From Adineta vaga (Eukaryota; Animalia; Rotifera), in contig CP075493.1 of assembly GCA_021613535.1 (NCBI GenBank), positions 10,141,179 through 10,205,178 on the forward strand: 64,000 nt of DNA, given 5' to 3'. Shown here in pieces: positions 9,801-42,902 of the stretch. How positions within the stretch are numbered: position 1 is the first letter of the stretch; each line of letters starts with the position of its first letter. The position numbers and the translations under genes were made by a program. The notes below the pieces were generated by a model. It ran no database searches and had not been told where the DNA came from. It worked only from the letters and a program-made list of their open reading frames with translations.

Positions 9801-10048
9801 TTTGGATGTATTGGAAGACTACGGTCAGATACTTGAGAATGACTATCGACTACTAAAGCTGATGTTCGTGAACAAGGAAGAATAATTTCTTTCGTACAAT
9901 CAGAAAATAACATTATAAAAAAGACATCAATAAATATCCAAAATAATGATGTATAAATAACTACATGAAGATATTGACGTTTCCATAAACGAAATCGTTT
10001 AAAGAAGACTTCCGTTGGTGTTGAATGATACGGTGAAAGGGGATTCAT
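6827..10048 (-). CDS. Polypeptide N-acetylgalactosaminyltransferase (GalNAc-T, GT27 family) with C-terminal ricin-B lectin domain. Type-II membrane protein, multi-exon.
   Basis: N-terminal exon (10048 down) has a short cytosolic tail plus TM ([22 protein letters not shown]). Mid-gene revcomp of about 8400-8470 gives [17 protein letters not shown] (GalNAc-T Gal/GalNAc-T motif). The 3' exons (6840-7200) encode QxW-type ricin-B repeats (...[14 protein letters not shown]..., ...[11 protein letters not shown]...). Stop at 6827-6829. Confidence 0.75.
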
Positions 10049-19500: not shown

Positions 19501-21362
19501 AAGGTGAAAAATATGCAATTTATGTGATATCTGTATCTTGTAAACCATTACATGCAACTATGGATGATCAAACACGTGAATGGATAACATATCGTCGTTA
19601 TAGTGAATTTAATGATCTTCATATGACTGTAAAAAAACGTTTTCCAGCTCTACGTGAATTCATTCATTTACCTAATAAAAACTTCATGAATAATACTAGC
19701 CAAGAAATACGAGTCAAACGACAAAAAGAATTAAATGATTATTTAGCTGTATGTTGAAATATTTTCTTTTCCATCTTCGTTAAATAATTATTTTAATATT
19801 TTTTCATCTATAGACATTAACAAAACCCAAAGTTCTACTTAATAATCCAGGTCTTGGTGAACTTTTACTCAAATTCTTACGAAATCAAGCAATGGAAACA
19901 TGAACAAACAGAAATATCTCGAAAGGTAAAATTCTATTTTTGAATAAGTCATTCATTCTTCTCATCATCGGATAGATACGTTTAAGTTTCTTTGATCAAT
20001 TTATATTTATCTATTGATTTTATCTTGTAGGATTTTTTTTCATCAACGGTTTGTTTCGTTTCTATAGTTTATTATCACAAGTAGTTCTGTGTGCACATAT
20101 ACTTTAAGGATATTGTTTTCTTTTGTTTCATGTTTTTGAAATAGTTTGTAAATTATTTTCTCAAATTTGATATATTTCTTTTTTTCTCTATTTATACAGA
20201 TGGATACGTTGGTCAATCCATTCAAACAAGCATCCATTGGTATTGTTAAAGGCGTTTCAAAAATTGGTGGTGGATTAACCATTGTATCGGATAGTGTAGT
20301 AGAAAATGCTGGTAAAATCTTTCGAACCAATGGAAATAATGCGAATCGATTGAATATAAATTTGAATAAAGATTCTCAAACATTTTCTATTGTTGAAGAA
20401 ACACAAGCAGAGGTAAACGAACAAATTTGTATGTTTTATTTTCATTGTCTTAATGATGATATTAGAATGCTAAGAACATTCCACTTCGTGTATTGTTGGT
20501 GATTATGGATGAAGTTTTTGATCTTAAACAGAAAAATATGTGGTTTCGTTCGAGATTTGTTGCGATTTTAAAACGATTTCTAAGAGCATTTATGGGCGAT
20601 TCAGTCAATCGGTATATTATTTAATTTTGTATTATTCACATCGCGCTTATTTTCTTTTTCTCTCTCTTAGACGCATTGCAACGTTTGTTCAACATTGGAC
20701 ATCAGCAAAGAAAATTGCAAAAGAAATTTCTCGATTCATGTATGAAAGTTATTTATAATGATTTCGAATTAATTCTGATTTTTCTTTATAGAGAAGCATT
20801 CTGGCCAAATGGTGTACTAGCTGATAAACCATCTGAACGTGATGAAAGTATACGAAATGTGACACAAGTATTATGTAAAGCAAAACTACTCGGCATTGTT
20901 TCAGGTACACTATTGATTAGCGATTCATTTTGATTACTCATATTGATGGATATTTTAGACGAACTTCGTCATATTATTGGCAGTGAAACAACTCGTCGTG
21001 GTTTATTACGTTTATTTGAATTATTACAGAATGAAACATTTAATCGTCGATTTGTTTATATTGTTATTGAAGCTTTATTGATCAAATTATTTCGACCGAA
21101 TGATTTACATTTAATATTTGAAAAACTTTATTCTCAATCTGAACGTGTTAAAGAAGAATATCGACGACGAATTTTTGAACAGGAACATTATCATAATGGT
21201 ATTGTTGTCAATCAATCACATTATGGTGATTCCAATCAACGACCTTATTATCTCAGTCGTTTATCTGTACGAACTGATGATAATATTGCTTTACATAGAT
21301 CCGCTAGTATTCAACAGCAACAAAAAGTTCTTCCTCGAAGTTTTTCAAAAATATCACGATAA
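16578..21362 (+). CDS. Sorting nexin of the SNX13/14/19/25 class (2xTM - PXA - RGS - PX - PXC/Nexin_C); about 12 exons or more.
   Basis: ATG at 16578. N-terminus MNGSSMIAKQFYLIGGLCLIWSIFGIERTIYWLLLFLTIIFGFVFFHVLL gives two TM helices. Exons 17250-17900 are PXA-like (LINLFVRDYVEIWYKTQL...). Exons 18290-18830 resemble RGS (...AFRCAGITAVQ...). Exon 19500-19757 is a PX domain (YAIYVISVSCK...WITYRRYSEFNDLHMTVKKRFP...RQKELNDYL). Exons 20200-21362 are Nexin_C-like. Stop at 21360-21362. Confidence 0.65.
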
Positions 21363-27675: not shown

Positions 27676-30600
27676 ATGTCTCCATTAAGTGGCAAGACAT
27701 TTGTACTTGAGCTTGGTCGAGAAATTCGTTTTAAAGCTAAACAAGAACTAATTAACTATTTACGTGAACAAAATGCGCAGATTTCATATATATTAACTGC
27801 TAGCGTAGGTTTTTCTCTCTCGACATATCTGAATCATTATCGATTGAAACTTATTTTTACTCTAGACGGATTATGTTTTGGTTTCGAATGATATTGATAC
27901 ATATAAAACTCGTCGAGCAAAACAACTCGGCATACCATTGGTTAATGTTGATTATATTCATGAATGTCGTAAATCAGAAGTTGGAAAAGAACCATCTGAT
28001 ATTAAACGATTTATTGTGACATCAGCAGAAGATAAAGAAAACTTCTCAAAAACTGGTACTATACCAGTTTCAGGTTAATATACGAAGGTTTCTTTAGAAA
28101 ACTTATATTAATACTTCTTCTTCTTTTGCATAGGAGGAGGAAGTTCGTCAGGTAGTGTAATAAAACCTGTTAAATATGATGTATCAAAAATCAAAATATG
28201 GAATTCTGATGATGTGGAATTACCATGTTTCGATGAAATTACACATGCTGAAATTGGCAAATGGGCAATCTTCAAAGTAAAAATCTTGAGATAATCAATT
28301 GACTCTATTCATTTTCTTGCCGTTTTCAATAGGAAACAAACGATCATTCAGATATTCATTTTGCGCTTGAATTACAAATCATTTCCGAAGAATATTATCA
28401 TCAACAAACAAATAATGATTATCAATTTCGATTTCGTTATGAAAAACAAACAATTATCAGTTCGAAAGGTAAAACTTCATTAATTCAATATGCCTTCAGT
28501 CATGATATTAATGAATTACATCAATTATTTGCATCGTACTATTATCGTATTGCAACAATGCCAAGAATAACTCGAATTCGAGAATTATTACCCGATAAAT
28601 TAGGTTCCAAATTATTATTACGTGTAAGTTACTTTTCTTTCTTTTGCCATAGAAAAATATATTCTTCAATTTTAGTCATTATTTCTTCATCGAATTGATA
28701 CACAAATGCTCGATGATAATGTTTGTCAATTGATTGAATCACTTTGGATTGAATCGATTGGAGATTTAAATAAGATTCTTTCTGTTCAACCTGAATCGAT
28801 TGCATTGAAAACAGTATGACAATAGAAAAACAAATGTATTTGAATGTTTATTGTTTTTTTTTCTCAAATATTCTTTTAGATTATCGAGGCTGAAGCTGCT
28901 TTACTTGAAATCAAATCTGGTGGTGAATCAGCATCGGAAGCAGAAACTCGTTTCTATTCACTGATTCCTCATCAATATTCATATCTTATCGATCTTATAA
29001 CAAATCGACGTGCCTTAATAGATAAAATTGATTTATGTCAGGTATATCTTCTTTGCTTGTTGATCATTTCATTGGCTAAATTTTCAAAATTTAGATGTTA
29101 CGTGATATGCTTACGATCAATGAATTAACGAATTGGAATATTAAAGCATCAATTGAAGCAAAATATCGAGCATTAAAATGTCATATTGAAAGTATCGATA
29201 GAGATAGCCATGAATACTCGACCATTAATAATATGATTCATTCATCAACAGATTCGTACGTATTTTTGAATGATTAGAACTCTTTTGAAAAGTATTTGAG
29301 ATTCTTATAGGAATGAAAAAGTCATTGTTCATCACATCTATAGTGTTGCAAAACAAATAGATGCATTGAATTTTCGCTCAACACTTTTTAATCAGAAACA
29401 ACTTTTTCATGGATCGAAATATAATAATTTTCTTGGTATTCTCTCACGGTAAATCAATTTAATAAAAGTTCTTTCCAAACATTCATATTTTTTTTCTTGT
29501 TATTTAGTGGTTTAATGCTACCAAAACTAGTTGTAGATGATCTAGGAGTGGCACGTACTGATTTTGGATGTTTGGGATATGGAATTTACTTTTCGGATTC
29601 TGTTTCAACATCTTTAAAATATACAACATCAAGTACAACTTGCCCTGGTCGACGCCTATTATGTATATCTCAAGTAGCATTAGGAGAATCAGCAAAATAT
29701 TATTCATATGCAACGAATTTAACTCAACCACCAGAAAATTGCCATAGTACACATGGAGTAAAGAAGACCAATGAAAATAATTCGAAATTTTTCGTAAGAA
29801 ATTTCCTAGTTTTTATTTCGATAAATTGAAATTATTTAGGATGATGAATATGTAATCTATAATCTTGATCAACAACGTTTACTCTACATTGTTGAAGTTT
29901 CATGGCAACCACATGATGTTATTGATCAACCATTGAAACTATTACCAATTATTCGTGATCATTCAACAAAACAGTTAACGAGTTCGAAAAACGAAAGTAA
30001 TTGCAAAATTTTACAATTCACTCTTCATTAATATAAATCTTTAACTGCATTTTTAGTGGATATACCATCATCTATCGAAGATGAAGTAATTCAAGTAGCA
30101 GAACAGGATTATGGTTTAGTTTGTCCATCATCAGGTCAATTAGTGCCATTGAAAGCATTTCATATTCGCGCTCAACTTGTTGATGTAACTGGTGAAGTAT
30201 GTTTAATTACATTGCTCCTTCTTTCAATCAATATTATCTATAAATATTTGTTAGGTAGTACTTTATCAAGTATATCATAATACAAGTTCAGTTCCAATCG
30301 AAGCTAAATATGTGTTTCCATTGGAAGAAAATTGTTCTGTGTGTGGTTTCGAAGCTCATATAAACAATAAAGTTATTAAGGGTGTTGTAAAAGAAAAAGA
30401 ACAAGCGAAACGTGAATATCGTGAAGCAATCGAAAAAGGTCATGGTGCATATTTAATGCATCAAGAACAACCTGAAGTTTTCAGTGTATCTGTCGGTAAT
30501 TTACCAGCAAATTGTGAAGTGATTATCAAGATTACTTATGTTGCAGAATTATCAATTGAAAATAATGATATTATCTTTCGTTTTCCAGCAAAAGTAGCTT

Positions 30601-32560
30601 CATGGCAATCGAAACAAGCTTTAGAAGCAAAAGATCAAACAATTCTTCCATCGATTAATCTTGAACAAGATAATTCGTCAATGAAATCCGTTGAATTTAG
30701 TTTGAAAACATCTATTCGTATGCCATACGAAATTAGTAAATTATTCTCTCCGACGCATCGTCTTCGACGGAAAGTAACCGATTGTTTAGCCATGATTGAA
30801 CTCGTTGATAATGTTCTATTAGAAAAAGATTTTATTCTTTCTATAACATTAAAAAGTATAAATTTACCACGAATGTTAAATGAAACATATGTTGTCTCGG
30901 ATGAAAACAATAATATCGAATTAAATGATGAACAATCTCAAGCATGTATGTTAACATTTTATCCGAAATTTGAAATGACAAATAATATCAATGAATTTGT
31001 GGAAGTCGTTTTTATTATTGATGTATCAAATTCAATGGATGGTAATCATGTTCAACAAGCAAAACAATTAGCACATTTATTTTTAACAAATATGAACAAT
31101 AATGATGGAAATATTTATTTTAATATTGTTACCTTTGGATCAGGTAAGATCGGATGAAGTGAGTTTGATTAATTTTCTTTTCGTTCTTTTAGATAATGAT
31201 GAATGTTTTCCTATCTCATCACCAAATACAAAAGAAAATATTGATAAAGCAAAGCATTTCATTTTGGTTTGTATTATCCTATCAGTTCTTTTGTTCTTGA
31301 AGAAAATCTTCTCTTTTGTAAATTATAGCATTCACTTGATCATCGTGGTAATACTGATCTTTTCTCTGTTCTTCGTCAATATTCTCTCCTTCCATCTCCA
31401 TGTAAACTTGGTCGACAATTTATTCTTCTTTCTGATGGACATATCAATGATTTGAATTCAATTATAACTTTACTAGAAAATCAACCATCTATGGCACATG
31501 ATCGATTCTTTACATGTTCAATTAGTGATACATCAAATAAACATCAATTAAAACAATTAACTAATGGAGCACATGGTGGCGGTTTAGCAACTGTATTTGA
31601 TTCAAACTATCGTTCAAAATGGAAATCGAAAGTTCTTCTCATTCTTGAACATATTCGTCAACCATGTGTAACAAATATATCAATTGATTGGCATGGAAAT
31701 CTTGATAATCAACAAGTTAAATTTACCAATCAAGCACCAAAAATGATTCGATCCTTATTTAATGGTATGCGTTTAACTGTCTATCGATTTATTCAAAATT
31801 GTCATAAAGCAACATTGACAGCAATGATTAATGATCAAGAATTTGTTACAACTGTATTCAGTAATAAAATGACAGAAACACGAGGAACAATTTTACATTG
31901 TTTAACGGCACGTGCAATTATTCATGATTATGAAAATGGTATATTGCATGTAGATGAAAGTGAAAATGAACTGATGAAAAAACAATATAAACAAGATTTA
32001 ATTGACTTGAGTATAAAATATTCTGTTGTAAGTTCATTTACAAGCTTTGTGGCTATTGAAGAACGTGATGGACAAGCACTTGAGCCAGGTAGAGTTTTAA
32101 TTTCAGATTAAAATAAGATTGAAAAACTTTTCTTTCTTTTTCTTTTCTTTTCTTTTCTTTTCTTTATTAGGTGTTCGCTTACTGGATGTGATGCTTGAAC
32201 ATGATATTGATTTATTGCCATATATTGGTTGGGATGGTGATCGATCACAGATTCAAATAATTAAAGAAAAATTACTGGATGCAAAACATTTATTTGATAG
32301 TGCATCGATATCAAATAAGATTCAACTAACAACTGAATATGAAAAACTTTGTCAAAATATATCTTATCGTTCTGGTGGCGATGCAAAATATGATTTAATG
32401 TTGGCAATTATTGAAACGTACAGAACGATGCTAAAAGAAAATAATAAAGCATTAGAATTAGAAGAAAAAATGCAGCTTGGTAAAATTGAATTGTTTTTTA
32501 TTATGTATTTAGTCGAATTGATTTTGTATTCATAGAACTATTGACTGAAATAACAAATGC
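27676..32560 (+). CDS. Vault poly(ADP-ribose) polymerase (PARP4/vPARP)-like gene: BRCT - PARP catalytic - VIT - vWA; 15 exons or more.
   Basis: Exons 27676-28078: BRCT-like (GKTFVLELG...; ...GIPLVNVDYIHEC). Exons 29300-29830: PARP catalytic core with the H-Y-E triad (LFHGSKYNNFLGILSRG; GYGIYFSDSVSTSLKY; DDEYVIYNLDQQRLLYIVEV). Exon 30312-30600: VIT domain (KGVVKEKEQAKREYREAIEKGHGAYLMHQEQPEVFSVSVGNLPANCEVIIKITYVAEL). Exons 30990-31700: vWA (EVVFIIDVSNSMDG...IVTFGSG...QFILLSDGHINDLN). This domain order is specific to PARP4 among PARPs. Confidence 0.75.
32140..32166. repeat. (CTTTT)n pentanucleotide microsatellite inside a PARP4-like intron
   Basis: cttttcttttcttttcttttctttt read directly. Confidence 0.85.
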
Positions 32561-32945
32561 AACGGCTGATGAAAGAAAGATATTGGAAAAACGTTTGGAA
32601 GAAGTTAACGCACGTATTAATACAGCTGAATCGTTAGTTAAATTTGTAATAGGAGACAAATTTTAGAAATTTTGATTCTTGTTTTAGGGAAAGCCAAGAC
32701 GAAGGTGCAAGTAGCGAGGACATCGATAGTTCTCAAGATTCCTGCGACGAAGAAGTAAACTGTAGTAATATTCTTCTTCGGACTGTAAGTTATTTATCAA
32801 AGTATTGAAAAAACTTTCTGAAACTAAATAACTGTCATTTCTTTCTATGAAAAGTGTTCAATGGGTGGTGACGATTCATGTATGGATAGTGCATTTGCAA
32901 ATATTATTCTAAATACTTTGTGTTGTTGTATATTTTATAGATTCA

Positions 32946-35900
32946 ATGGTGGATTGCGATATAGACTATCCTCTTGATTTTGAAGTTTCCTCTACAGCTT
33001 CTAAGCCAGCTATGAATCCATATAAATCAAAAGGCACAGCCATTGCTTTAAGTTCGTCTCATGATGAATCTGAAGGATCTGATGATATGGGTTTTGGCTT
33101 ATTTGATGACGGCGTACCTGCATCATATTCACCAGTTGTATCGAACAAATTGCGCTCATCAATGATAGACGATAAGAAAGATACAGAAAAAATTGCGGCG
33201 GCTGCAAAGATACCTCAAATGCTCGAAACTATGAGAGAATACGAAGATGATGAAGACGAAGCGGACGATTTTGGTTTTGATTTGTTTGGCGATTATTCTT
33301 CGTCATCACCAGCTGCTACAGTGAATCTTATAGAAAAAGAGGAACATAGTAAACGAAGCACGAGTTTAGCGAAAAGACAATCACCACCAAACGTACAAGT
33401 AACTCCCATCAGAGATTTACTTGAAGAAACTAAAGATCTTCTTAAATCTAATTTAAATAAGATTTTAGATAGAAGTAAGTATACTTTGAAACACATTTTT
33501 CTTTATTTATATTTGTAAATTTATTATTATATTCAATAATAGGTGACATGCTTTCTTCTCTGTCCATAAACGATGAACGAGCCAGTCCAAAGAAACGCAA
33601 GGAAGTATCAAAAAAGGAATCTAAACCAGTACCTTCTGATTCAGCTGTTTTTTCAAACTTGTCACATACATCCCATACGTCTCAAATACCAACAACACAA
33701 AGCTTCAGTTTTTCTAATCTACATTCACAACCACAACAGCAGCAGCAGCAACATCTGAAACAGCAAGAATCTTCGATAGATGGTGATAAGTGCCTCATAA
33801 CGCCGGCATTGTTTGATTTTACAGGCAGCAGTCTTTCGGCGAACAGTGCAGATTTCATATCTGCAACGGCATCCGCACCCTCATTTTCATTTTCGAACAC
33901 TGCGTTCAACAACTATTATCAGAGTGATGTATTGCCAGACTTTGGTATTTCAACTCTGCCTCACCCTAGCATGCCATCCTTTACGTTTGGTGCGCCTCAA
34001 TTTAACAACAATACGTGCAGTGATCCATTCTCTACATCGGCTGGCACTCTTTCGGCAAGTACAAATATGGGCTTTAATACTGGACCACCACCACCACCTC
34101 CTCCTATGGCTGCTGGATTTTTTGGTAGCACACCACCTAGTTCCAATTCTTTGTTTCAACCAACCACTGCTAGTGGCATGTCATACAATCCTCTGTTGCC
34201 AGATGCGATGCTTCAACAAGTACTGCTACCAGCACAACCTCCTCCTCCTATGGCTGCTGGTTTCTTTGGCAGTACTATGTCGCCAGGTGCGGTTTTTCAA
34301 CAACTACCACTACCACCACCACCACCACCTCCTCCTCCTATGGCTGCTGGTTTCTTTGGCAGCACTACATCTAGTTCCAATTCTTTTTATCAACCAACTA
34401 TTGCTACTGGCATGTCATATAGTCATATGCCACCAGGTGCTATGCCTCAACAAGTACTACTACCACCACCACCACCACCACCTCTTCCTGCTCCTCCACG
34501 ACTTCAATCAATAAAAACAATAGCAAATGAATCGGGTTTCAAAATGTCATTAGCTGATGACGAGGAATCATCTCCGATGTATTCTGCGTTACAGCATAAA
34601 CAACGCTCGAGCATGGTGTCACGAGATAGAGGTCGTGGAGTAGTTTTCGGAGGAAGATGCGCAACTGATGGAGCTGAAGTATTAAGTGGGAAAAAATCAG
34701 AGATCATTAAAGAAATATCTGTAAATGATTGTGCTCGATATTGTGACGTATGTGTAGACAAAATAACATTTAAATCTTATACAAAATACTTTTCTTATTG
34801 TAGACACGTTCCGACGAAGCCTCTAATGCACCAGTAAAATCTGCAACATCAGACTATACAGAAGACTACAATATATTTAGTAAAAAGAAATCGAGTTCCA
34901 AACGGTACGAATTTTAGAAAGACAAAATACCATTCATGTTCACTAAAATGGAGCTATTAAATTTATTTTAGTGCACCCGAGAAGAAACCAGTGACCAAAT
35001 ATGTTGACGATTGTCTGTACGATCTTTTACTACTTGATGTTACACCACTTGGTTTAGGTATTGAAGATGTGAATGGTGAAATGTGTACAATTATTGAACG
35101 CAATCGTACAATTCCAACGAAATCAAACGTTTATTCTATATTTACCAATGCTTATGCTTATCAGACAACAGCTACTATACGTATTTTTCATGGTCAACAT
35201 AAATTAACAAAATATAATGTTAGTAAAATACTTACACAATTGAAATCGAATTGAAATAATTTTATTTTGTTTTAGATATTTCTTGGTGAACTTATTCTTA
35301 AAGATTTAACACCAAATTTTGCTTCACAAACATTACAAATATCAATTGTTATGGATGTTGCTAATAGTTTCCTACAAGTCAATGCGGAAGAACCACGATC
35401 AGGAGCTAAAGCTATGATTAAAATTAGTGCATCAGATTGTAAGAATCCATTAACCAATATGTATTCAAAATAAATCGTATGTATTTAAATTTATTATAGA
35501 TTCACTTAGTGCAACCGAAATTGAACGACATATTACATATGTCGAAAGTGATCCTAACTATAGAGCTGTAGATTTTAACGATGCACAAAAAAATAATCGT
35601 CAATACAAGGTCGGTACCAGCTTTCAGAAAACAAATTCATTCTAAATCTCGATTATTTTAGTTGAAAGGTGATACAGAAAGTACGGCCATTCGTTTTACA
35701 GGTAATATAGAAAGTTCGAACGATGTTTTCAATTTTGATCGACCAAAAACTATTCAATTAATTTCAACAACTCTAAATGAAATTAAAAAAATACAATTAC
35801 CAAATGGATCGTTCGATATCAATGAAGATTTTACTAAATTATTTTCAATTCCGATGAAAAATTTTGATGAACTTAAAAAATACTTATGTTCACAAGGTTT

Positions 35901-36327
35901 TAATTCATTTGGTAAGAATGAATAAAAAATGATAAAATAATCTAGAAGAAGAATCTTTTCTTTTAGCATTAAATGTACAACAAGATATTATACATCTCAT
36001 TGCAACAGGTATTGTTCTTCTACAATTGTTATTACAAGTACCCGTATCGGATAGAAAAGGATATTTAGTTCCATTCGATAGTGAACAATTAAAAGTAAGA
36101 AACGAAATTCTGTTGTTTGTTTTTTCTTTCGATTGATTGATTTGATTTCTTTTCAGACGATTTTTCATTGTCATTTACCGAAAGTTTTGATAGAAAATGT
36201 TAATAAAGCAATTGATTTTTATGAACAAAAACGTTTACGCTGTGGAATATATTGTGAACAATTAGAATTGAAATATTCATCATGGGAAAAATTGATTCAA
36301 TACGGAATTTTTCAAATCGAAAATTGA
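32946..36327 (+). CDS. Composite ORF region downstream of, and possibly continuous with, the PARP4-like gene: acidic ribosomal-stalk-P-like motifs, polyproline repeats, HSP70 substrate-binding-domain-like module, conserved C-terminal region.
   Basis: Exon 32946-33476 contains DESEGSDDMGFGLFDDG and DDEDEADDFGFDLFGD. Exon 33541-34790 has three repeats of P(7-11)MAAGFFGST. Exons 34975-35240 / 35279-35450 / 35500-35610 encode LLLLDVTPLGLGIEDVNGEMCTIIERNRTIPTKSNVYSIFT...IRIFHGQ...IFLGELILKDLTP...LQISIVMDVANSFLQVNA...YSLSATEIERHITYVESD, collinear with the HSP70 SBD-beta and start of the lid (LLLDVTPLSLGIET.GGVMT.LI.RNTTIPTK...VYEGER...LLG.FEL.GIPPAP...I.V.FDID.NGIL.V.A...LSKEEIERMV.EAE). All junctions were hand-checked and are in phase. 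Terminal exons 35650-35925, 35960-36100 and 36150-36327 end ...LIQYGIFQIEN*. Confidence 0.5.
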
Positions 36328-36983: not shown

Positions 36984-37526
36984 ATGCAAGCTACCGCCGG
37001 TATCCAAAAACTTAAAGGTACTTGGGAATACGTTGATGGTGAACATTTCGATGATTACATGAAAGAAATCGGTGTCGGTTTCGCTCTTCGTCAATCAGCT
37101 AAATTAATTAAACCAAAATTGATCATTCAAGAAAATGGAGGTAAATGGTCACTCAAAAGTGAATCAACCCTTAAGACAGCTTCATATGAATTTACACCTG
37201 GCACTGAATTCGATGAAACTCGTCTCGATGGTGAAAACTGTAAAGTTAGTTCAACTAAAATCTTGGAAAAACTTATCTTTTTCATCTGTCTGTTTATTTA
37301 GTCCATAATCAAATTTGAAAATGATAAATGGGTACACACAATGCGCGATAAAAATGGTAAAGAATCGACAGTTACACGATGGGTTGATGATCTAGGTCAA
37401 CATCAAGTTGTAAGAGAAAAAAAACGATTTTTTTTCCTTCTGAAAGTTGAACTTTATTTTTTCCTCTTATAGGACATGAAAGCTGGCAGTGTTACAGCTC
37501 GCCGTTGGTACAAACGTGTTGATTAA
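36984..37526 (+). CDS. Cytosolic fatty-acid-binding protein (FABP / iLBP lipocalin family); 3 exons, about 137 aa.
   Basis: MQATAGIQKLKGTWEYVDGEHFDDYMKEIGVGFALRQSAKLIKPKLIIQENGGKWSLKSESTLKTASYEFTPGTEFDETRLDGENCKV | SIIKFENDKWVHTMRDKNGKESTVTRWVDDLGQHQV | DMKAGSVTARRWYKRVD*. The G-x-W signature, beta-barrel periodicity and ...R.Y.R C-terminus are typical of FABPs. GT/AG introns at 37250-37299 and 37393-37472. Confidence 0.75.
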
Positions 37527-41717: not shown

Positions 41718-42902
41718 ATGTGTTCAACAACATCCATAGATGAAATTGAAAATATTCATCTACTCAACGTTCTCAATTGGTCACCTTTCGAAGATTCAAA
41801 TATCAATAAATCATCAACAACAATTAAAGATGATAATGATTCTAAGTTAAAGAACTCTTACAATGCCGTACAACTTTCAATTGAATTACAAAAGAAAATG
41901 TTAAAGTAAACAAACATCACTAAGATTTTTTTTTCATATTGTTTTATTTAGTTTAAAATCTTTATTTGTTGATTCATCTGGTCATCTTGTAAACTATTCA
42001 CAACTACGTTCAAGTAGTGTTTACAATGATTTATGTGACATGGCGAAATATTTAACGACAATCAATCTTGATAATGTCACTGAAAATGAAAGAAAAACGT
42101 TTTTTATCAGTAATTATCAATAGATATCGATTTTTTGCTTGTAGAAGAGAAATACTTTCGTTTTTAGATCTTTATAATGTCTTGACCATTCATGGGATTG
42201 CATCGTTAAGTGATTTACCAAAATCTACTTTTGATTTAAATCAATTCTGGAAAACGACAGCTTATAAAATCGGTCCACATATTTATTCATTAGATGACAT
42301 TGAACATGGCATCTTACGCGGTTCGAAAAACTTCACATGTTTCATATAAATTCATAAACAAGAGAATGTCTGCTTTTTTAGGTAACAAACCTCATTCAAA
42401 TTGTACTCAACGACATTTTACATATAATGATCCTCGTACAAGATATTGCATGCGTCGTTGTGATCCACGTATTCATTTTGCATTGAACTGTGGAGCACGA
42501 TCATGTCCAATCATATCTATTTACTCATCAACAAATCTTGAAAAAGCTTTGAATATGTCAACAACATCATATTGTAATGCAGAAATCGATATTATTCCTC
42601 AAAATGCTGAAATTCATTTATCGAAAATCTTTCTTTGGTATAAAACTGATTTTGGACGTACAGAATCAGAAGTGCTACGGTAAGTTTTCCATTCATTTCA
42701 TCTTCTTAATCACGTGTAATATTTGAATTTTAGTTGGATTGCAAATTATATTGACGAACCAAAACAATCATTACTGAAAACTGTACTAGAACAACATGGA
42801 ACCAAAGATGGTATACAAATTTCATATAAAATCTATGATTGGATGTTGAATAATCATGATGGTTTAATATCGAGTACGACTAATGTCAATCTTTGTCAAT
42901 AA
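41718..42902 (+). CDS. DUF547-domain protein; about 5 exons.
   Basis: Spliced translation ...ERKTFFI|NLYNVLTIHGIASLSDLP...QFWKTTAYKIGPHIYSLDDIEHGILRG|NKPH...DPRIHFALNCGARSCPIISIYSSTNLEKALNMSTTSYC...LSKIFLWYKTDFG matches the DUF547 core (kLaFfINlYNalviH...; hFALnCGA.SCP). Stop at 42900-42902. Confidence 0.6.

Follow-up and report, generated by a model that had tools for sequence, protein, structure and literature searches.

Closest described systems

Reviews of human PARP4 describe a BRCT-WGR-HD-ART part, an inter-alpha-trypsin inhibitor heavy chain-like (ITIH-like) region, a long disordered region and a domain that interacts with major vault protein (MVP), named the MVP-interaction domain (MVP-ID, also termed MINT) (PMC10450202, PMC12280208). 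The domain maps in both papers place no folded domain in the disordered region, and neither paper names Hsp70. Here we analysed computationally a stretch of 64,000 nucleotides from the bdelloid rotifer Adineta vaga (assembly GCA_021613535.1, contig CP075493.1, positions 10,141,179 to 10,205,178; hereafter the window), in which a PARP4-like gene is predicted to carry the substrate-binding domain (SBD) of an Hsp70. The rotifer protein follows the order of human PARP4 (BRCT, PARP-regulatory/ART, VIT-vWA, disordered region and MVP-ID; PDB 9BW6/9BW7). It differs in that its disordered region holds the SBD and motifs resembling the tails of ribosomal stalk P-proteins (P-stalk), to which its paralogues add calmodulin.

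The MINT domain of human PARP4 docks onto MVP repeats 3-5 within the vault cage, and fusions to MINT package cargo into vaults (PMC12280208). Engineered cargo-MINT/INT fusions have the binding domain directly N-terminal to the MVP-interaction domain, and so does the rotifer protein. The rotifer fusion, in contrast, is natural and conserved, its "cargo" is itself a peptide-binding domain, and its incorporation into vaults is predicted by analogy. Perina et al. (2014; PMC4245714) reported PARP4-like proteins to which 14-3-3, actin or ubiquitin-related domains are appended; they come from amoebae, Capsaspora, a choanoflagellate, lancelet and sea urchin. The principle is the same, namely a clade-5 PARP with VIT-vWA that bears, C-terminal to the ITIH-like region, an additional module taken over from a conserved protein of the cytosol. 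At the locus described here, however, the module is an Hsp70 SBD placed between the linker and a retained MVP-ID, and that paper names no Hsp70 (0 occurrences). Our analysis also confirmed 14-3-3, ubiquitin and actin appended to PARP4-like proteins. These three cases are published, and we found no report of the calmodulin, P-stalk and Hsp70 cases; literature searches for PARP4 with Hsp70, decoy or rotifer returned no description of a PARP4-Hsp70-SBD architecture. An earlier reading of the window from its letters (the sequence-only reading) had held that the architecture would be novel if the module was part of the PARP4-like or P-motif protein. This holds for the Hsp70-SBD variant, but the variant is not unique to the window and the principle of appending modules is published.

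On the Hsp70 side, the module has the same fold as the SBDs of DnaK (1DKX), rat Hsc70 (1CKR/7HSC) and lid-truncated BiP (7A4U), with a collinear sequence and a retained pocket. Unlike Hsp70, it has no nucleotide-binding domain (NBD), and hence no ATP cycle and no control by J-proteins or nucleotide-exchange factors. It also lacks lid helices B-E, the EEVD motif and the R467 latch, its loops L1,2, L3,4, L4,5 and L5,6 are remodelled (T403D, "NAYAYQTTA", "EGEH.LTKYN"), and it is embedded in another protein.

The Hsp70 module and its missing parts

The window is AT-rich eukaryotic DNA (about 30% GC) with very short GT..AG introns. The module is encoded by three exons.

34972-35218, + strand: SBD exon 1, with the interdomain-linker remnant DLLLLDV, the N-terminal beta-sandwich strands and the family-invariant block
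35276-35438, + strand: SBD exon 2, with the rest of the beta-sandwich strands
35500-35609, + strand: SBD exon 3, with helix A (SLSATEIERHITYVESD, to 35552) and then the start of a poorly conserved spacer

These are the three phase-consistent exons claimed by the sequence-only reading, and the peptide strings it quoted are correct. The two introns between them are 57 and 61 nt long, of GT..AG type and consistent in phase; introns around the SBD exons span 57-67 nt. Within exon 1, the Hsp70 interdomain-linker remnant lies at about 35015-35059 (+ strand) and the family-invariant block, FTNAYAYQTTATIRIF, at 35141-35188. The hydrophobic linker pattern (D-[VL]-LLL-D-V) is present, and its leucines are kept family-wide though there is no NBD to dock to.

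The spliced peptide of 173 aa matches Pfam PF00012 (HSP70) with an E of 3.9e-21 (75 bits). The match is limited to profile positions 382-515 of 599, which correspond to the interdomain linker, SBD-beta and helix A. The peptide also matches solved SBDs of Hsc70, BiP and DnaK in PDB with E about 1e-18 to 1e-19. Four full-length HSP70/BiP/DnaK queries searched by tblastn against the whole window aligned through residues ~387-536 only, at 35039-35434, and neither strand of the 64 kb showed an NBD (other hits had E>4 at best). The earlier claim of an HSP70 SBD-like module without an ATPase is borne out by both searches, and as that reading proposed to check, only the C-terminal part of the PF00012 profile is matched. 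Its description of the module as SBD-beta and proximal lid stands for SBD-beta; from the lid, helix A alone is conserved and modelled, and helices B-E were not found in the region after it, which is of low confidence and 15-47% identity. No conserved sequence follows helix A until the MVP-ID. The C-terminal EEVD motif is absent, as the protein ends with ...YGIFQIEN after the MVP-ID.

The module lies inside one PARP4-like gene

The gene model around the module has the domain order BRCT, PARP, VIT, vWA, long disordered linker, Hsp70 SBD and MVP-ID homologue.

27676-36327, + strand: model of the complete PARP4-like (vault PARP) gene, which encodes 2364 aa in 27 exons separated by 26 GT..AG introns (46-82 nt)
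aa 2-77: BRCT, Pfam E=1e-5
aa 303-363: PARP_reg, Pfam E=2e-4, under the curated cut-off
29206-29899, + strand, aa 389-566: predicted PARP catalytic domain, PF00644 E=4e-24
29402-29419, + strand: PARP motif LFHGSK
29575-29598, + strand: PARP motif GYGIYFSD
29840-29860, + strand: PARP motif DDEYVIY
aa 630-740: VIT, Pfam PF08487 E=3e-36
aa 895-1049: vWA, Pfam PF13768 (VWA_3) E=8e-13
aa 2025-2214: HSP70, Pfam
35662-36327, + strand: spacer and MVP-ID/MINT homologue in exons 35662-35911, 35967-36094 and 36157-36327, stop codon 36325-36327

The model is a stop-free exon chain obtained by dynamic programming and refined with homologues, and runs from an ATG at 27676 to the stop codon at 36325-36327. 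The minimum number of GT..AG introns needed to cross the 8.65 kb stop-free is 22. Shuffled sequences, the reverse complement and other regions of the window need 43-46 introns or have no path, and the chain is thus far better than chance.

The VIT and vWA domains form the inter-alpha-trypsin-like region of PARP4 (30149-31577, + strand), which is 38-43% identical to named PARP4 proteins of other animal phyla among those listed. The three PARP motifs are taken to be the H-Y-E motifs by analogy with PARP1, and the domain is predicted to be catalytic. The MVP-ID homology region is the final 180 aa. Comparison of bdelloid C-termini with vertebrate PARP4 C-termini by hhalign gave a probability of 97.7% and an E of 2e-12 over 133 columns, and relatives of clade B (see below) carry precomputed hits to PF26156 (MVP-ID). 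A direct phmmer search of the window C-terminus against PDB gave no match, and the MVP-ID homology was seen only by profile-profile comparison. The Pfam scan gave no PF26156 match either, but gave none even for proteins with precomputed PF26156 hits.

The long disordered linker ends with the SBD, and some 50-60 residues separate the SBD from the MVP-ID. A strong GTAAGT donor and a 68-nt intron (33475-33542) join the linker exons in frame. Because PARP4-orthologous parts flank the SBD on both sides, it is placed inside a vault-PARP orthologue, and the predicted gene structure makes the Hsp70 module an internal part of one PARP4-like gene. The free-standing SBD that the sequence-only reading had offered as an option is thereby abandoned. 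Its other suspicion, that the SBD belongs to the PARP4-like protein or to the protein with P-motifs, was right, and the two are one and the same gene.

Structure, pocket and conservation of the SBD

The structure was modelled on the closest orthologue, P0001, which is 66% identical over the aligned segment from the SBD to the C-terminus. The AlphaFold2 model of P0001 has eight strands and helix A, and the predicted local distance difference test score of its SBD is mostly 70-82. Foldseek returned the SBDs of DnaK, BiP and Hsc70 as top hits to this model, with root mean square deviations of 2.2-2.8 Å over 135-140 residues.

The pocket, loop and latch positions, applied to the alignment in DnaK numbering, are presumed to be those of Zhu et al. 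1996. The equivalents of pocket residues I401, F426, A429, Q433, I438 and I472 are retained. Within the pocket, M404 is replaced by V/I and V436 by A. The substitutions T403D (invariant in bdelloids), D431A and R445H are also present, the latch residue R467 is S/A, and an insertion of two residues precedes F426. All 15 aligned bdelloid sequences share the block FTNAYAYQ.T..IR.F.G.H..TK.N unchanged, and about 50 columns of the module are invariant. Identity between the two bdelloid clades is 58-66% in the SBD, 34-44% in the MVP-ID and 15-32% in the spacer; the upstream linker could not be aligned. Over the sequences of both clades, the SBD ranges from 58 to 70% identity and the spacer from 15 to 47%. 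Of 77 strongly conserved columns, the window copy departs from the consensus at 8, where the family range is 0-13. With these counts and with frames and splice sites intact, the window SBD is not a decaying copy, in agreement with the earlier argument against a dead pseudogene.

Selection was measured as the ratio of nonsynonymous to synonymous divergence (omega) by the Nei-Gojobori method (NG86). The values are relative, as the GC content at third codon positions (GC3) is 0.19 and synonymous divergence (dS) is underestimated everywhere.

SBD, window versus two Rotaria species: omega 0.58-0.70, p=0.12 and 0.03 for omega<1
SBD, Silwood1 versus Silwood2: omega 0.60, p=0.095
SBD, comparisons with A. 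steineri: omega 0.36-0.40, p about 1e-3
BRCT-WGR, window versus Rotaria: omega 0.13
PARP, window versus Rotaria: omega 0.19-0.20
VIT, window versus Rotaria: omega 0.03-0.06
vWA, window versus Rotaria: omega 0.25-0.26
MVP-ID, window versus Rotaria: omega 0.34-0.35

The expectation of strong purifying selection on the SBD was toned down in view of the NG86 omega of 0.6-0.7 within the Rotaria-like lineage. The SBD has a frozen core and a fast-changing periphery. The constraint gradient along the gene is steep: VIT is under the strongest constraint, the SBD under the weakest among the folded domains, and the linker is effectively unalignable. This gradient in the window mirrors the fast-evolving disordered region of mammalian PARP4 (PMC4038475).

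Relatives, clades and origin of the module

The PARP4-like proteins of Rotaria sp. Silwood1 and Silwood2 share 81-83% of the residues in the N-terminal half, VIT-vWA included, and dS is about 0.4-0.7; by these values the window would come from a bdelloid close to Rotaria. High-scoring homologues of the part from the SBD to the MVP-ID were found only in bdelloids, where they form two clades. Clade A comprises the window, Rotaria sp. Silwood1 and Silwood2, R. socialis, R. magnacalcarata and A. steineri, and clade B comprises R. sordida, R. magnacalcarata, A. ricciae and A. vaga. Additional divergent copies occur in Didymodactylos carnosus. The SBD shares a single model with PARP or VIT-vWA in P0158 of R. 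sordida, P0156 of A. vaga and P0473 of D. carnosus, the last being 2098 aa long with PARP at 267-443, VIT, vWA and HSP70 at 1776-1923. The precomputed Pfam lists of A. ricciae P0153 and P0159 hold vWA and HSP70. The gene models are public but are not named as this architecture; UniRef names some relatives "PARP4 MVP-ID C-terminal domain-containing protein".

The intron positions in the SBD are identical in clades A and B, both the intron after ...LTKYN and the phase-1 intron before SBD exon 3 being common to the two clades. These shared positions argue for a single ancestral insertion of the SBD in bdelloids. Clade B paralogues also have a calmodulin-like sequence a few hundred residues upstream of the SBD, which A. 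vaga P0156 has in full (ADQLTEEQIAEFKEAF...) and which lacks its N-terminal part in model P0158 of R. sordida. A single tether of a clade B paralogue (also seen in L007) thus holds calmodulin, SBD and MVP-ID.

The arrangement was also seen outside the bdelloids. The metagenomic contig L004, from what we call a monogonont-like rotifer (closest named relative Brachionus calyciflorus, 50% identity), encodes PARP-VIT-vWA, an FG-like linker and the SBD in one uninterrupted open reading frame (ORF) of 5271 nt (P0195), downstream of which lies an MVP-ID-like ORF. A related JGI protein, P0303, has vWA and SBD. The oyster PARP4 model K1PUC2 (P0270) combines an N-terminal piece of actin with a motif resembling the P-stalk and an incomplete SBD, which Pfam matches at E=3.6e-12 over profile positions 417-517. 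In P0356 / P0475 of D. carnosus, the SBD stops after the FTNAYGYQHTGIIKIFE strand and continues straight into the MVP-ID. An exhaustive HMMER search also returned proteins with an SBD in other positions (P0338-P0340, P0349, P0358, P0388 and P0389). They were rejected as new fusions, being tandem or merged canonical HSP70s, or Ig/GFP/TIR-HSP70 merges or constructs.

The SBD of P0303 is the least diverged among the PARP4-embedded ones, with 83% identity to rat Hsc70, 66% to BiP and 58% to DnaK. As it is closest to Hsc70, the source of the module was most likely a cytosolic Hsc70, judging from these identities. The string "RLSKDDIERH" also agrees with Hsc70. Horizontal transfer of a bacterial DnaK, a route common in bdelloids, was considered and rejected on this string and on the 83% versus 58% identity. 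The SBD of P0303 is preceded at residues ~1075-1085 by "YEAVAYG", which we liken to NPDEAVAYG, presumably the last helix of the Hsc70 ATPase domain. This suggests that "YEAVAYG" is an NBD remnant and that the capture breakpoint was just inside the NBD.

Proposed function and vault docking

We think it somewhat probable, by analogy with isolated SBDs, that the module is a nucleotide-independent peptide clamp tethered beside the vault-docking domain of bdelloid PARP4. The SBD would act like an isolated, lid-truncated Hsp70 SBD, with no need for ATP. The isolated human Hsp70 SBD binds the NR peptide with a dissociation constant of 11 uM, compared with 9 uM for the full-length protein, and deletion of helices C-E weakens binding to 53 uM (PMC3696110). 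For BiP, see also PMC4608358. The ligand of the clamp would be an extended peptide, kept at PARP4 or within the lumen of the vault, since the SBD adjoins the domain that docks human PARP4 to the inner vault wall. Candidate ligands are a client, a specific partner, or the Leu-rich linker of its own or a neighbouring PARP4. In Hsp70, the Leu-rich linker drives self-association of the SBD (PMC3696110). Such a protein would amount to a "cargo adaptor-MINT" fusion of natural origin. That the binding loops are remodelled yet invariant suggests a ligand preference different from that of a generic Hsp70.

MVP genes are present and stress-induced in A. vaga (PMC10809525). Among the MVP-contacting residues of human PARP4, S1614 is kept in bdelloids, and K1618, Q1682 and R1689 are replaced by N, R and Q, respectively (1/4 conserved). 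Window positions 36244-36270 (GIYCEQLEL) align with human PARP4 1682-1692, and the equivalent of R1689 is Gln in all bdelloid copies. Human studies single out Arg1689 as conserved and MVP-contacting (PMC12280208). The changed contacts suggest co-evolution with rotifer MVP or an altered docking mode.

Several points weigh against the tethered clamp. Vault docking of rotifer PARP4 is assumed, with one in four contact residues kept. The arch and outer loops are changed in the predicted SBD, and generic Hsp70-type peptide binding is therefore not guaranteed. The SBD evolves fast within the Rotaria-like lineage, with an omega of 0.58-0.70 against 0.03-0.28 for PARP, VIT and vWA, and neutrality was not rejected in two of the three close pairs. 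P0356 has evidently lost half of its SBD, by its sequence, and the module is then dispensable in some copies. The exon junctions are inferred from the sequence, those in the acidic linker (32633-32940) and at intron 33475-33542 being the least certain. An internal promoter may give a shorter isoform comprising linker, SBD and MVP-ID.

Linker motifs and gene neighbourhood

The linker upstream of the SBD and the flanks of the gene contain further features.

33078-33110, + strand: P-stalk C-tail-like motif 1, SDDMGFGLFDD, in the acidic linker
33264-33293, + strand: P-stalk C-tail-like motif 2, DDFGFDLFGD, in the acidic linker
34106-34366, + strand: three P(n)-MAAGFFGST repeats, almost identical to one another, in the proline-rich, FG-like linker 5' of the SBD
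36984-37298, + strand: lipocalin/FABP-family gene directly downstream, Pfam E=8e-13
42294-42680, + strand: DUF547 gene, Pfam E=1e-14
20943-21359, + strand: weak match to a sorting-nexin C-terminal domain upstream, under the Pfam cut-off

The two motifs of the acidic linker differ very little from the tail that is conserved at the C-terminus of ribosomal stalk P-proteins. On ribosomes, translation GTPases are recruited through this tail, and toxins of the ricin type dock there. The top Pfam hit for the motifs is PF00428 (Ribosomal_60s), which is sub-threshold (E=0.002, two stretches, profile positions 69-88 of 88). Similar motifs occur in the PARP4 linkers of Aplysia, Nucella, oyster, sponge and Rotaria. 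FG-like repeats comparable to those of the window lie upstream of the SBD in Rotaria models and in P0195, where SSSFGAGLFSSP occurs twice; such repeats may be bound by the clamp or may be a general feature of PARP4 linkers.

Captured pieces of abundant conserved proteins are found in the post-ITIH-like region of PARP4 in invertebrates (P0166, P0169, P0170, P0174, P0182, P0213, P0241, P0260 and P0270). A 14-3-3 protein has been captured in lancelet, a hemichordate and monogonont-like rotifers, ubiquitin in molluscs and Brachionus, and actin, with its first ~55-70 residues only, in an echinoderm, a sponge and oyster. According to precomputed Pfam lists, actin is further present in PARP4 models of cnidarians, and pearl oyster has EF-hands.

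The order UBA, PARP4-N, SBD-MVP-ID and lipocalin is conserved in Rotaria sp. Silwood1 and Silwood2. A. steineri has the same gene order from the PARP4-N model onward, with DUF547 farther along.

Alternative explanations

The module might instead be an integrated bait or decoy. The SBD would mimic host Hsp70, so that effectors or toxins are drawn to PARP4 and the vault and are sequestered or ADP-ribosylated there; we regard this as unlikely, and equally the extension that other lineages use calmodulin, P-stalk tails, the actin N-terminus, ubiquitin or 14-3-3 for the same purpose at the same position. Many toxins and effectors bind or need such hub proteins. The idea draws support from the fact that different hub-protein fragments occupy this position by lineage, and that several are mere fragments (actin ~2-70, the P-stalk tail, half an SBD in oyster), which suits mimicry better than full function. 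The omega of the SBD is above that of the rest of the gene, and the bait would lie between vWA and MVP-ID, where the disordered stretch of mammalian PARP4 evolves under strong positive selection and has been put forward as a host-pathogen interface (PMC4038475). On the other hand, omega is below 1 everywhere, no pathogen, effector or immune read-out is tied to these proteins, and the SBD loops have been remodelled from Hsc70 and then frozen across bdelloids, unlike those of a faithful mimic. Integrated-decoy receptors, such as plant receptors of the nucleotide-binding leucine-rich repeat type (NLRs) with integrated domains and NLRP1B (PMC13037943), likewise fuse a fragment of a host target to a larger effector protein. 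The likeness is conceptual only, as PARP4 is not an NLR and no recognition or signalling was seen here. That the PARP4 tether is a modular bait array across animals, with vaults as an effector-trapping innate immune organelle, we hold to be decidedly unlikely. Such an array would draw into the vault anything that grabs the client-binding domain of Hsp70 or is grabbed by the clamp.

An improbable alternative is that linker, SBD and MVP-ID are transcribed alone as a separate gene, whose product would be an NBD-less SBD protein docked to vaults apart from PARP. In public annotation, the Rotaria and A. steineri assemblies do have two models at the locus, one with PARP-VIT-vWA and one with HSP70 of 478-706 aa, and an ATG at 33548 opens a long exon in the window. 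The split points, however, vary by assembly, with gaps of 389, 216 and 62 bp. They fall at 9612-10001 of L001-L003 (Rotaria sp. Silwood2), where a GTAAAA donor immediately precedes the annotated stop, and at 9784-10001 of L005 (Rotaria sp. Silwood1). The split in A. steineri (L006, ~9880-9900) is a run of N within a continuous proline-rich ORF. Other species have single models or a single ORF, the GTAAGT donor with its 68-nt intron joins the exons in the window, and the upstream PARP4 part would be left without an MVP-ID. From their sequences, the two-model annotations look like artefacts. A separate SBD-MVP-ID product is possible as an extra isoform and unlikely as the only product.

We consider it very improbable that the module is a functionless relic, an exonised Hsc70 fragment adrift in a tolerant disordered linker. 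The omega of 0.6-0.7, which for two of the three close pairs is not significantly lower than 1, speaks for such a relic, as do the truncated or partial SBDs of the Didymodactylos paralogue and the oyster model. Against it stand an omega of 0.36-0.40 (p about 1e-3) in the Adineta-Rotaria comparisons, the roughly 50 invariant columns and the higher between-clade identity of the SBD (58-66%) than of the adjoining MVP-ID (34-44%). Moreover, two old bdelloid clades and Didymodactylos have kept the module, with its frames unbroken and its introns shared. An ordinary HSP70 gene with overlooked upstream NBD exons, the rival that the sequence-only reading had itself named, has a negligible chance and is refuted within the window, in which the tblastn search with four full-length HSP70s detected an NBD on neither strand of the 64 kb, the exons upstream encode a proline-rich linker and PARP4 domains, and those downstream encode the MVP-ID.

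Significance

The arrangement found in the window is also present, as read from their sequences, in other bdelloids (Rotaria, Adineta, Didymodactylos) and a monogonont-like contig, and partly in an oyster PARP4 model. The two models into which several bdelloid assemblies divide this gene should be merged. A natural Hsp70 SBD apart from its ATPase is rare and is of interest for chaperone evolution. Together with the published 14-3-3, actin and ubiquitin cases, the Hsp70, calmodulin and P-stalk modules point to the PARP4 linker as a hotspot for the capture of interaction modules, in the same region that is under positive selection in mammals. After decades of work on vaults and PARP4, a putative clamp next to the vault-docking domain would give a testable handle on their functions.

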